Notes: generated by a model from the sequence alone, not told the origin. A stretch of 64,000 bases of DNA from Candidatus Omnitrophota bacterium (GCA_030650425.1 JAUSED010000009.1:32904-96903); one strand, 5' to 3'; shown: positions 248-43,746, counted from the stretch's first letter. Made by a program: numbers and translations.

Positions 248-727
248 GGCAGGTGGAATGTGGTCGCCCCGCTTTCGGCGGGGAGGAAAGTCCGGGCTCC
301 GGAGGATAGCGCAGTAGGGTAATGCCTACCCTTTGGTAACTAACCAAAGAGGATTATCCCGCAAGGTTAGCTTTTAAAAGCTAACCTTGCGGGATCATTG
401 CCTGAGATGTAAACGCAGGCAATGAGAGCCACAGAGACGAGTAGCCGTTGAAGATTGTGATGAGTAAGATCCTGAGCCGCCTATGGCGGCTCAGGATCAT
501 CTCGCAGTCTTCGACTGCGAGATGAAACGAGGCAATCTCTGCGTGGAGCAAGGCGAATAGGAGATAATCTACTAGGTATGTTGAGTGGAACGCGCTGGTC
601 CGGCGCGTCATTAATCTCGGGTATTAAGCTGCTTGAGCTTCGATGGTAACATCGGCGTCGAGAGGAATGATCACTAATCGATAGCGAAAAATCGCATCAA
701 GACAGAACCCGGCTTATTTCACCTGCT
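247..727 (+). ncRNA. rnpB: RNase P RNA, bacterial type A, with extra inserted hairpins (about 481 nt)
   Basis: The universally conserved GGAAAGTCCGGGCTCC is at 286-301. The 3' end ACAGAACCCGGCTTAT...TTCACCTGC resembles E. coli M1 RNA. The P1 helix pairs GCAGGTG (250-256) with CACCTGC (720-726). A T-run follows. Additional perfect hairpins lie at 350-400, 460-495 and 497-525. Confidence 0.85.
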
Positions 728-765
728 TTTTTTAATTTGAGCTAAACATAATAAGGAGGAATCAA

Positions 766-5372: not shown

Positions 5373-6385
5373 TTATTGTCTTAAGGCCGGAGGCCACCGA
5401 GGCTCAAGTCAACCACATCATTGAAAAGGTAAAGAAACTGGGATTAACTCCGCATGTCTCTAAAGGGACTGAGCGCACGATTATCGGAGTGATCGGCCCG
5501 GAGGATATTCTGCGCGTTACTCCTTTGGAGGTTTTCCCCGGCGTAGAAAGGGTTATGCCGGTTTTGGCTCCTTATAAGCTTGTTTCGCGGGAGTTTAAAG
5601 CCGAAGATTCGATTATTGAATTGGGAAAAGGGGTTAATGTCGGAGGCAAGAAAATTACGGTGATGGCCGGACCATGCGCGATTGAAAATATAAATATGCT
5701 GCGCGCGATTGCCAGTGAAGTTAAAAAAGCAGGAGCGAGTGTCTTGCGCGGCGGAGCATTCAAACCGCGTACTTCTCCTTACAGTTTTCAAGGGTTGGGA
5801 GAGGAAGGCCTTAAAATACTCAAAGCAGTCGGGGATGAATTTAATCTGGTTACCGTAAGCGAAATAATGGATACCCGCGATGTAGAACTGATCAGCCGTT
5901 ATGTTGATGTGCTGCAGATCGGCGCCCGGAATATGCAGAATTTCAACCTCTTAAAAGAAGTGGGGATGACTAAAAAGCCCGTCTTGTTGAAGAGAGGTTT
6001 GGCCTCGACCGTAAAAGAAATGCTCATGTCCGCGGAATACATCTTAGCCGGAGGAAATTTTAATTTAATGCTTTGTGAGCGCGGCATCAGGACTTTCGAA
6101 GATTCCACGCGTAACACTTTGGATATCAGCGCGGTTCCGGTGATTAAGCAGTTATCGCATCTGCCTATCATCGTTGATCCTTCGCATGCAGCCGGAAAAT
6201 GGGGGCTGGTCGGACCCCTTTCTAAGGCCGCGGTTGCGGTGGGCTCTGACGGTTTGATTATCGAGGTGCACACCTCTCCGGAAGACGCGATGTCTGACGG
6301 CGCACAGTCATTAATACCTTCAAATTTCACCAGTTTGATGTGCGAGTTGAAGAATCTAGCCAAAGCCACAGGAAGAGAGATATAA
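5369..6385 (+). CDS. aroF: 3-deoxy-7-phosphoheptulonate (DAHP) synthase, Thermotoga-like class I-beta with an N-terminal regulatory domain
   Basis: A KDO8P synthase-like core (GPCAIEN, KPRTSPYSFQG, IVDPSH) follows an N-terminal ferredoxin-like domain of about 70 aa. Confidence 0.8.
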   Translation: MIIVLRPEATEAQVNHIIEKVKKLGLTPHVSKGTERTIIGVIGPEDILRVTPLEVFPGVERVMPVLAPYKLVSREFKAEDSIIELGKGVNVGGKKITVMAGPCAIENINMLRAIASEVKKAGASVLRGGAFKPRTSPYSFQGLGEEGLKILKAVGDEFNLVTVSEIMDTRDVELISRYVDVLQIGARNMQNFNLLKEVGMTKKPVLLKRGLASTVKEMLMSAEYILAGGNFNLMLCERGIRTFEDSTRNTLDISAVPVIKQLSHLPIIVDPSHAAGKWGLVGPLSKAAVAVGSDGLIIEVHTSPEDAMSDGAQSLIPSNFTSLMCELKNLAKATGREI

Positions 6386-43199: not shown

Positions 43200-43272
43200 G
43201 CCGGCGTAGCTCAGTTGGTAGAGCGTCTGTTTTGTAAACAGATGGTCGGGGGTTCGATTCCTCTCGCCGGCT
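43200..43272 (+). tRNA. tRNA-Thr (anticodon TGT)
   Basis: Acceptor GCCGGCG/CGCCGGC, D-arm GCTC-AGTTGGTA-GAGC, anticodon loop TTTGTAA, T-loop TTCGATT. Confidence 0.85.
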
Positions 43273-43290: not shown

Positions 43291-43578
43291 GGGTAGGTAC
43301 CCAAGTGGCCAAAGGGGGCAGACTGTGTAAACGCAGCGTCATGTCGAAAGGCGTGATGGAAAAGTAGGTGAATTCAGGGAACCCCTTAGTATATCTTTAC
43401 TGAGGGCAATCCTGAGCCAAGCCCGCCAATTTTATACGGCGGGAAGGTGCAGAGACTAAGCGCCTACCACCTAAAGCTTACAGCTATGGTGATGAGATAG
43501 TCCAAGCCTCAAGGTAACTTGAGGGCTCTTGAAATCTGCTGCACTTGTGCTTCAGAGGTTCGAATCCTCTCCTGCCCA
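43291..43578 (+). tRNA. tRNA-Tyr (anticodon GTA) interrupted in the anticodon loop by a group I intron
   Basis: Exon 1 at 43291-43326 gives acceptor GGGTAGG, a class-II 3-bp D-stem, and anticodon stem GCAGA plus CTGT. Exon 2 at 43532-43578 gives AAA, TCTGC, a long variable arm hairpin, T-arm AGAGG-TTCGAAT-CCTCT, and acceptor CCTGCCC. The spliced loop is CTGTAAA. Confidence 0.8.
43327..43531 (+). ncRNA. Group I intron (subgroup IC3-like, 205 nt) inside the tRNA-Tyr anticodon loop
   Basis: P1 pairs exon CTGT with internal guide sequence GCAG, giving a U·G wobble at the 5' splice site. It ends in G before exon 2. The core GGAAGGTGCAGAGACTAAGCGCCTACCACCTAAAGC...CTATGG...GATAGTCC closely resembles the R and S (P7) elements and 3' core of the Azoarcus tRNA-Ile intron. 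No ORF is present. Confidence 0.8.
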
Positions 43579-43607
43579 TTAAAATTTTCCGACAAGGAAA
43601 ATTTTAA
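43579..43607 (+). other. Perfect 12-bp stem-loop immediately 3' of tRNA-Tyr
   Basis: TTAAAATTTTCC-GACAA-GGAAAATTTTAA. A second hairpin with the same GACAA loop, CAGCCC-GACAA-GGGCTG, lies at 43641-43657. Confidence 0.5.
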
Positions 43608-43672
43608 TGGCACTAAAGCGAGCGTAAACAGCCCGACAAGGGCTGTAGCGAGCGTAGTGCCTAGAGTGAAAT

Positions 43673-43746
43673 GCGGGTGTAGTTCAATGGTAGAACAATA
43701 GCCTTCCAAGCTATATATGTCGGTTCGATTCCGATCACCCGCTCCA
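43673..43746 (+). tRNA. tRNA-Gly (anticodon TCC) with an encoded CCA
   Basis: Acceptor GCGGGTG/CACCCGC, D-arm GTTC-AATGGTA-GAAC, anticodon loop CTTCCAA, T-loop TTCGATT. Confidence 0.85.

Follow-up and report, generated by a model that had tools for sequence, protein, structure and literature searches.

How is tRNA-Tyr supplied from a gene cluster in which a standard tRNA search finds no gene for it? The question is raised by a stretch of 64,000 nucleotides from Candidatus Omnitrophota bacterium (GCA_030650425.1, JAUSED010000009.1:32904–96903), here called the window, in which ARAGORN, when run without introns, reports nothing between a tRNA-Thr and a tRNA-Gly gene. A prediction made from the sequence alone (hereafter the original prediction) had placed a tRNA-Tyr(GUA) gene at this point and proposed that it is split by a group I intron. 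Our analysis leads to the conclusion that, in all probability, a compact group I intron without an endonuclease interrupts a working tRNA-Tyr(GUA) gene between U35 and A36, and that this intron is old in its clade, where it has passed on mainly by vertical descent and has now and then been lost precisely.

The interrupted tRNA-Tyr gene

The gene forms part of a Thr-Tyr-Gly cluster, an order common to many of the homologous loci described below. The first gene of the cluster is tRNA-Thr(UGU) (43200–43272, plus strand; found by ARAGORN and by the Rfam tRNA model with 71.7 bits) and the third is tRNA-Gly(UCC) (43673–43746, plus strand; found by both ARAGORN and Rfam). When introns were allowed, ARAGORN called tRNA-Tyr(gta) i(37,205) between them. 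This corresponds to a class II tRNA-Tyr(GUA) at positions 43291–43578 on the plus strand, which is interrupted between U35 and A36 by an intron of 205 nt at 43327–43531. That the gene is missed without introns reflects the default settings of the tool, and we dismissed this as an argument against the gene.

Both exons were delimited by the intron-aware ARAGORN call and by in-silico splicing. The 5′ exon (43291–43326, plus strand; GGGTAGGTACCCAAGTGGCCAAAGGGGGCAGACTGT) comprises the 5′ strand of the acceptor stem, the D arm, the 5′ strand of the anticodon stem and C32-U33-G34-U35. The 3′ exon (43532–43578, plus strand; AAATCTGC...CCTGCCCA) continues with A36-A37-A38, the 3′ strand of the anticodon stem, a long variable arm, the T arm, the 3′ strand of the acceptor stem and the discriminator A. 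CCA is not encoded in the gene; position 43578 is followed by TTAAAA. Splicing in silico yields a class II tRNA-Tyr of 83 nt with the anticodon loop CTGTAAA, a GTA anticodon and a long variable arm, and in the ARAGORN structure the acceptor stem is followed by a 3′-terminal A (A73). A73 and a long variable arm are features of bacterial tRNA-Tyr.

We also tried alternative junctions, displacing each side by as much as 4 nt in all combinations. Within this range, only the proposed pair of junctions restores the canonical 83-nt tRNA-Tyr; the shifted junctions result in odd loops, in other anticodons or, in two combinations, in a Tyr call that retains four extra intron bases. The predicted spliced junction reads CUGU|AAAUCUGC or, over a longer span, GGCAGACTGT|AAATCTGCTGC.

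The original prediction had described this as apparently the only tRNA-Tyr gene of the cluster, and indeed neither a second tRNA-Tyr nor an intact Tyr anticodon loop (GACTGTAAATC) is present elsewhere in the 64-kb window. Likewise, no second intact tRNA-Tyr was called in any of the homologous loci that we fetched. The motif GACTGTAAATC does occur once in these 8-kb loci, namely in the spacer between tRNA-Gly and tRNA-Thr of L047, but since ARAGORN calls no tRNA there, it does not represent a second intact gene. The interrupted gene seems to serve the organism as its working tRNA-Tyr(GUA) and, judged from the 64 kb of its genome that are visible, may be its sole tRNA-Tyr.

Synteny between the window and the homologous Omnitrophota loci extends to both flanks of the tRNA cluster; with one of these loci (L026), nucleotide identity is 73–80%. 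The window is thus derived from an Omnitrophota bacterium, one whose own species is not represented in the collection scanned. An identical contig of 5.6 kb is contained in SRR13727527. The window also holds the gene for a bacterial class A RNase P RNA (249–730, plus strand; Rfam RF00010, 124.9 bits), the enzyme that would presumably process the tRNA-Tyr at its 5′ end.

Anatomy of the intron

The intron (43327–43531, plus strand) ends in G and is matched by the Rfam family RF00028 (Intron_gpI) at positions 43333–43524. The original prediction had named this family as a check; the score is 89.9 bits, above the gathering score of 50, and the match extends over the full model (positions 1–253). 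With E = 1.1e-21, it lies far beyond chance. All helices from P1 to P9 are present, all of them on the plus strand.

P1 (43323–43336) is formed by the exon sequence CUGU together with intron nucleotide G+1 (43323–43327), which pair with CGCAG (43332–43336) across the loop UAAA (43328–43331). It is seen both in the sequence and in the minimum free energy (MFE) fold, and it places a wobble pair, U43326·G43333, at the 5′ splice site. The pairing of a GCAG guide with CTGT had been predicted correctly, but the intron had been said to begin with the guide, which really occupies 43333–43336, 7–10 nt into the intron and after the short P1 loop. The coordinates of the gene and intron, the length of 205 nt, the quoted motifs, the terminal G and the U·G wobble at the splice site had all been given exactly.

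P2, as found by RNAalifold, pairs 43337–43345 with 43350–43358 and is closed by a GAAA tetraloop, L2 (43346–43349). In P3, placed by the Rfam alignment, the 5′ strand GUAGGUG (43364–43370) pairs with the 3′ strand CGCCUAC (43461–43467). P4 (43374–43379 with 43410–43415) encloses P5 (43383–43389 with 43400–43406) and L5. P6 consists of GCC (43416–43418) paired with GGU (43446–43448), its register being set by the Rfam alignment, from which P6a (43422–43427 with 43438–43443) was also taken. The 5′ strand of P7, G-A(bulge)-GACUA (43452–43458), pairs with the 3′ strand UAGUCC (43498–43503), which directly follows J8/7 (AUGAGA); by analogy with the established structure of group I introns, P7 would be the guanosine-binding helix. 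P8 (CACC, 43468–43471, with GGUG, 43488–43491) holds the sequence CCUAAA...CUAUGG, which differs little from the 11-nt GAAA receptor. P9 (43507–43513 with 43518–43524) carries a GUAA tetraloop, L9 (43514–43517), and the terminal guanosine, or omega-G, is found at 43531 at the 3′ splice site. The core quoted in the original prediction, GGAAGGTGCAGAGACTAAGCGCCTACCACCTAAAGC..CTATGG..GATAGTCC, is present at 43443–43503.

The MFE fold of the single sequence yields P1, P2, P4, P5, P6a, P8 and P9 with a z-score of −5.6. P2.1, P5abc, P7.1 and P7.2 are absent, and the 3′ strand of P3 starts 2 nt after P7. There is no homing endonuclease ORF in the 205-nt intron, nor is there room for one; two short ORFs of 94 aa (minus strand) and 60 aa (plus strand) touch only its last ~20 bases and extend across the tRNA genes. 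A search by eye for P10, in which the 3′ exon would pair with the P1 loop, turned up nothing convincing; P10 is dispensable in some group I introns.

Homologous introns and selection on the fold

We scanned one genome per species for homologues, using a pattern composed of the end of the Tyr 5′ exon and the intron core. This pattern is specific, with one match in the window and none in 100 shuffles. The scan returned 51 loci, and in 39 of these, from 38 metagenome-assembled genomes (MAGs), a tRNA-Tyr(GUA) gene is split at the same point by an intron of 197–267 nt. According to their labels, 33 are from Omnitrophota, 5 are Planctomycetes-type and 1 is from Anaerolineales. All 39 introns have a terminal G and can be spliced in silico to tRNA-Tyr(gta), making 40 out of 40 with the window, and the exons form a perfect tRNA-Tyr in each of the 40 genes. 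The longest members of the family (247–267 nt) have an extra 3′ hairpin only.

With the 40 introns aligned by MAFFT, RNAalifold independently recovered P2, P3, P4, P5, P6, P6a, P8 and P9, with changes on both sides in 38 of the 51 pairs of its consensus. A further proposed pairing of GC (alignment columns 14–15) with GC (columns 265–266) was dropped, being near-invariant, free of covariation and not part of any canonical helix. We then scored a supplied structure of 54 pairs, consisting of the RNAalifold-type helices and P7 as a pseudoknot, against the 40 sequences. In this structure 97.9% of the cells are paired, versus 36–47% when the partners are slid by 1–3 columns, a control that corrects for the relatedness of the sequences. 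Compensatory changes are seen in 38 of the 54 pairs, and not one of 500 shuffles, which ignore relatedness, equalled any of the observed measures.

These changes are spread over most of the helices. Both sides have changed in 8 of the 9 pairs of P2, and compensatory changes are found in 6 of 7 pairs of P3, which is 100% paired, as well as in 3 of 6 pairs of P4, 5 of 6 of P5, all 6 of P6a and 6 of 7 of P9. The L9 loop is GUAA in 37 of the 40 introns and GCAA in 2. P6 is invariant across the homologues, which puts its register beyond a covariation test; RNAalifold picked a neighbouring register. The P7 pseudoknot is 99.2% paired, with five of its six pairs invariant and a single compensatory change from A-U to U-A in the Anaerolineales intron (L021). 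Covariation is only weakly informative on P6 and P7 because both are almost invariant. The intron fold as a whole is maintained by selection.

The elements at the splice sites are conserved as well. The GCAG guide is invariant in all 40 introns, and U-1, the strands of P7 and the terminal G are invariant or nearly so. The four P1 pairs that involve the exon have no freedom to vary. The nucleotide at +1 and the one immediately 5′ of GCAG, which together extend P1, form a GC pair in 20 introns, AU in 9, UA in 2 and CG, GU and UG in 1 each, and are unpaired in 6. This extension pair is kept in 34 of 40 introns through six standard pair types, and its covariation supports the proposed 5′ splice site.

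A second kind of joint change connects L2 with P8. Of the 31 sequences with a GAAA loop in L2, 29 have an 11-nt-type receptor in P8, and of the 9 with other L2 loops, 7 have a plain UCC/GGA helix there (Fisher p 6e-5, in a test that ignores phylogeny). Joint change of this kind is what a tertiary contact leaves behind and suggests that L2 and P8 touch in three dimensions, in what we take to be the type of contact found in the Azoarcus intron structure.

Empty sites and evolutionary history

We also scanned metagenomes for intron-less genes; the matches came mostly from gut bacteria that are unrelated but share this anticodon arm. Among the matches listed (120 loci), three (L076, L117 and L132) are syntenic relatives with an uninterrupted tRNA-Tyr. 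Their gene order, PdxJ-AcpS-NnrD-tRNA-Thr-tRNA-Tyr-tRNA-Gly-HK-RR-ThyX-GpsA, is that of the window, and amino acid identities are 51–86%. The uninterrupted gene is found at the same locus and not at a second one, and it is continuous across the junction, where it reads CTGT|AAATCTG, the sequence predicted to result from splicing. The junction is thereby confirmed without recourse to tRNA-finding software, and the existence of intron-less syntenic relatives means that the intron is polymorphic among relatives. That splicing restores CTGTAAA, as the original prediction held, is now supported by the in-silico product as well as by the junction in these three loci, and its central claim of a group I intron splitting tRNA-Tyr(GUA) is upheld by the RF00028 match, the intron-aware tRNA call, the covariation among 40 introns and the intron-less orthologues.

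In a neighbour-joining tree of the neighbouring protein NnrD, the three intron-less loci fall into three different subclades among intron-bearing loci. Intron-bearing loci dominate every subclade; they were taken from species-representative genomes and the intron-less ones from the metagenome matches listed, so that a relative frequency is not derivable from these numbers. Among the 40 homologues, NnrD differs at up to 59% of positions, and the pairwise distances between introns are correlated with those between the NnrD proteins (Mantel r = 0.59, p ≤ 2e-4, based on this one neighbouring protein and the MAFFT alignment). Since the divergence of the intron tracks that of the host, inheritance looks mostly vertical, with sporadic loss. 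A check for carriage by phage gave no support for it: none of 23 IMG/VR viral-contig matches to the pattern has tRNA-Tyr as its host.

Earlier records of introns in tRNA-Tyr

The original prediction regarded a tRNA-Tyr host as unusual. This view does not stand: such hosts are listed by Williams 2020 (bioRxiv 10.1101/2020.01.27.920355) and by Nakagawa et al. 2026 (mSystems, PMC13011429), and both the Tyr host and the 35/36 site are therefore already known. Williams described 17 new settings, including Tyr.4Ug, for a total of 21; the seed of this setting, Mba143.Tyr.4Ug, is a tRNA-Tyr from a metagenomic bacterium that is split at CUGU|AAA. Table 1 of Nakagawa et al. contains a Tyr(GUA) 35/36 intron in Patescibacteria GCA_016699995.1. 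These authors describe 35/36 introns as enriched in Patescibacteria and rare elsewhere, with 28 cases in 4,934 complete genomes and none in Omnitrophota, and the single Omnitrophota genome of the set carries an fMet intron at 33/34. A 2017 paper on cyanobacterial tRNAs claimed new 'group I introns' that are inserts of 22–49 nt, and Tyr is not among their hosts. A full-text literature search found no report of a group I intron in an Omnitrophota tRNA-Tyr. What is new here is a conserved Omnitrophota family at Tyr 35/36, from a phylum that is absent from the published 35/36 lists; neither of the two papers describes this family.

The window intron has the host tRNA, the insertion at CUGU|AAA, the U at −1 and the terminal G in common with Mba143.Tyr.4Ug and the Patescibacteria Tyr 35/36 intron. 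However, Mba143 is only 68.5% identical to the window intron, its alignment score is among the lowest of all those compared, and its core junctions differ from the window's (GGGAUAACGGUGAAAGC and GCGCCGUAGAGACUAGAUACC). We rejected the notion that the two belong to the same lineage, Mba143 being among the most distant sequences in the comparison. The Tyr intron of the Anaerolineales MAG (L021) has an identity of 60% to that of the window. As both Mba143 and L021 are distant from the window intron, at least three intron lineages occupy the Tyr 35/36 site.

Proposed splicing pathway and alternative explanations

All elements of the standard group I pathway are present and under selection, which makes self-splicing the mechanism best supported by the sequences. 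That the RNA itself is catalytic we infer from these elements, and the efficient self-splicing postulated in the original prediction is a reasonable inference. The Thr-Tyr-Gly precursor would be transcribed first, and the intron would fold into P1–P9, braced by the contact between L2 (GAAA) and the P8 receptor and by contacts of L9 (GUAA). The guide CGCAG (43332–43336), bound to exon nucleotides C32–U35 and G+1, would put U43326·G43333 at the active site, where a free guanosine held in P7 would attack after U43326. The terminal G43531 would then occupy the same guanosine site, and the 3′-OH of U35 would attack after G43531, joining U35 to A36 and restoring the loop CUGUAAA. The tRNA would be completed by RNase P, 3′ trimming and CCA addition.

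Could the intron instead be dead or nearly so, with this copy of tRNA-Tyr a pseudogene and a functional, uninterrupted gene located elsewhere? The visible part of the genome amounts to 64 kb, and intron-less alleles do occur in relatives, but these relatives have their uninterrupted gene at the very same locus. Moreover, compensatory changes have kept the fold over 40 sequences whose NnrD proteins differ at up to 59% of positions, there is little or no variation in the U at −1, the GCAG guide, either strand of P7 or the terminal G, the exons are those of a perfect tRNA-Tyr in 40 of 40 cases, and the gene retains its place in the conserved Thr-Tyr-Gly cluster. In the light of these observations, we consider a pseudogene extremely improbable. 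A dependence on proteins has a precedent, since some group I introns require them, CYT-18 being an example; a genuine group I intron that needs a protein cofactor or RNA chaperone in the cell, rather than acting autonomously, is nevertheless a very improbable explanation here. Two tetraloop contacts form part of its compact, Azoarcus-like architecture, a kind that is typical of robust self-splicers, and the contact between L2 and P8 is backed by covariation. The intron also encodes no protein, ORFs overlapping only the last ~20 of its 205 nt, and related introns, namely the Asn class at 35/36, self-splice in vitro free of protein (PMC13011429).

The remaining alternatives concern the history of the intron. 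It might have entered Omnitrophota tRNA-Tyr genes recently and horizontally, many times independently and by reverse splicing at CUGU sites. Against this, a homing endonuclease is absent, intron divergence tracks the host gene (the Mantel correlation given above), and the viral-contig matches include none in tRNA-Tyr. Since intron-bearing loci dominate every NnrD subclade, a few losses are simpler than dozens of gains. We therefore judge such repeated entry to be unlikely, even though it would be in keeping with the patchy distribution and the intron-less syntenic relatives, with the three or more unrelated lineages at Tyr 35/36 (the window family, L021 and Mba143), and with the occurrence of related compact introns in tRNA-Asn(GUU), which has the CUGU 5′ context, in Omnitrophota, DPANN archaea and viral contigs. 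A more far-reaching proposal, which we regard as possible but doubtful, is that the intron, like that of cyanobacterial tRNA-Leu, has been fixed since ancient times at the level of the phylum in what is the sole tRNA-Tyr gene, and belongs to a compact lineage that targets CUGU| in tRNAs with GUN anticodons (Tyr, Asn, Asp and His) and hops between hosts and domains. The hopping is suggested by the nearest relatives outside the family, which include tRNA-Asn introns on DPANN archaeal contigs. If this proposal is true, 35/36 would be a general landing site and no peculiarity of Patescibacteria, and archaeal tRNA genes would for the first time be credible hosts of group I introns.

The reading that we prefer, an old, mainly vertically inherited intron in a working tRNA-Tyr gene, leaves the current view of how group I introns work unchanged, and its added value is modest. 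Still, a well-conserved and structurally validated 35/36 lineage in Omnitrophota qualifies the description of this site as rare outside Patescibacteria. Furthermore, 40 natural variants of an intron of about 200 nt, the size of that of Azoarcus, together with natural empty sites, provide material for studies of folding and splicing. Because standard tRNA finders miss the gene, intron-bearing Omnitrophota genomes will look as though they lack tRNA-Tyr and will be scored as less complete, an annotation problem of missed tRNAs that was raised for Patescibacteria in PMC13011429.

Comparison with known introns

The intron of Azoarcus pre-tRNA-Ile(CAU) (IC3, 205 nt; Aol6.Ile2.5Ug) has the same length as that of the window and the same minimal set of helices P1–P9 without peripheral extensions. 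In both, a GAAA loop in L2 is combined with an 11-nt-type receptor in P8 (CCUAAG/UAUGG in Azoarcus, CCUAAA/UAUGG in the window) and L9 is a GNRA loop, and there is hardly any difference in the P6-J6/7-P7 core (GAAGGUG[U/C]AGAGACUA). The host and site differ, being Ile2 and 36/37 in Azoarcus and Tyr and 35/36 in the window. So do J3/4 (AAU in the window, AAA in Azoarcus), the 3′ strand of P3 (AAGCGCC versus GACGGCA) and J8/7 (AUGAGAU versus AAGGCAU). Overall identity to the Azoarcus type is 68%, and all tRNA-intron seeds lie between 62% and 72%. The designation 'Azoarcus-like, IC3' in the original prediction thus describes the architecture well; as a subgroup, IC3 is one candidate beside IA1, given an overall identity of only 68% and junctions that match those of the 35/36 Asn introns classed as IA1 rather than those of the classical IC3 seeds.

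These Asn(GUU) 35/36 introns (Asn.4Ug of Williams 2020) are inserted at the same position as the window intron and behind the same CUGU of the 5′ exon, and they accordingly have the same GCAG guide. The junction signatures GGGUGAAUUCAGGGAA, AGCGCC and GAUGAGAUAGUCC are also common to both, and the identity of the Nitrospirota Asn 35/36 introns to that of the window is 75%. In PMC13011429, the Asn(GUU) 35/36 introns of Patescibacteria and Nitrospirota are classed as IA1. The introns of this class contain a P7.1/P7.2-type insertion of ~33 nt between P7 and the 3′ strand of P3, where the window intron, aligned to one of them, has a single clean gap of 33 nt. Its closest relatives outside the family are compact Asn 35/36 introns without this insertion (L022, L023, L031, L035 and L036; 73–77% identity). 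Measured against the two classes, the window intron is 75% identical to introns classed as IA1 and 70–75% identical to those classed as IC3. Related tRNA-Asn introns lie on DPANN archaeal contigs.

The tRNA-Leu(UAA) intron of cyanobacteria and plastids is likewise small, of group I and inserted into an anticodon loop, though it resides in another host and at another site, 34/35, and its identity to the window intron is 71–75%. It has been studied experimentally, whereas the window intron is known from its sequence. The tRNA-Leu(UAA) intron mostly lacks an endonuclease, is old in one phylum and has been inherited mostly vertically, with sporadic loss, and it is this pattern of history that the family of the window intron resembles.

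Introns at the anticodon of tRNA-Tyr and tRNA-Asn

The intron inserted between nucleotides 35 and 36 of tRNA-Tyr at locus L021 of an Anaerolineales MAG (5447-5667, + strand) forms a distinct lineage at 60% identity to the window intron, in which the junctions are of the classical IC3-like type and one P7 pair is compensated. In three Omnitrophota loci (L025, L027 and L045; introns of 247-267 nt), an additional hairpin of about 50 nt is found just ahead of the terminal CACUUG. The MAG JAZDFW01 (MEGAHIT-group-0.225) carries an intron-containing tRNA-Tyr on two separate contigs, L006 and L011, with introns of 222 and 206 nt, respectively; both loci are syntenic with the window, and the bin is probably a mixture of two related organisms.

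Position 35/36 is also occupied in tRNA-Asn(GUU). Such introns sit within tRNA clusters on a 697-kb contig of an Omnitrophota MAG (L035, 6137-6320, + strand) and on three IMG/VR viral contigs (L062, L063 and L074), of which the viral ones constitute a separate group with 75-82% mutual identity and 62-74% identity to the others. Four further contigs, labelled as Woesearchaeota, Nanoarchaeota or simply 'archaeon' (DPANN), contain a split tRNA-Asn(GUU) as well: L022 (3432-3611, + strand), L023 (2561-2739, - strand), L031 (3660-3845, - strand) and L036 (1421-1614, - strand). Here, group I introns of 200-215 nt interrupt the gene at 35/36, as in the tRNA-Tyr of the window, and share 83-87% identity among themselves and 73-77% with the window intron. 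Assembly chimeras aside, these four contigs look truly archaeal, because the adjoining ORFs match MCM with its MCM lid, deoxyhypusine synthase, a KRR1/PNO1-type KH and an RPA-like OB fold.

Intron cores at other sites

Seven other matches to the scan pattern lie outside tRNA-Tyr and tRNA-Asn (L004, L017, L005, L008, L018, L038 and L046). Among them are a tRNA-Met(CAU) intron in a Nitrospira MAG and a tRNA-Leu(UAA) intron in an Acidobacteriaceae MAG; at five of the seven, in Bradyrhizobium, Chloroflexota, Parachlamydia, Saccharibacteria and Acidobacteriaceae, no tRNA was called at the match. Since L008 and L038 have the upstream sequence ATGCAGTTAGACTGT in common, their sequences suggest one shared insertion site other than a tRNA. 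The same core is present in 15 IMG/VR contigs (L053-L055, L059-L061, L065-L067, L069-L073 and L075), inserted 3' of a conserved, coding-looking sequence ending in GAGCAGATCGAAGATTTGCTCAACAACACGACTGT, with the would-be reading EQIEDLLNNTTV, and is probably a group I intron within a phage protein-coding gene.

Other RNAs of the window with predicted structure

The spacer between tRNA-Tyr and tRNA-Gly (43579-43660) is predicted to form a pair of strong hairpins, with a folding energy of -41.6 kcal/mol and a z-score of -8.3. CCGACAAGG spans the loop in both, a 9-mer found at no other place in the window, and the direct repeat AGCGAGCGTA lies on either side of the second hairpin, after which the window sequence shows no terminator-like T-run. 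The hairpins may act as a processing signal or else represent a small repeat element. The window also encodes a bacterial class A RNase P RNA (249-730, 124.9 bits), which measures 482 nt versus 367 model positions and carries large insertions at several points, such as a stretch of 89 nt corresponding to 13 in the model.

Relation to reported archaeal introns

Nawrocki et al. (2018) reported archaeal group I introns in rRNA genes only and put their IC3 hits aside as possible contamination. Williams (2020; bioRxiv 10.1101/2020.01.27.920355) discounted a tRNA intron case in Pacearchaeota as mis-binned.
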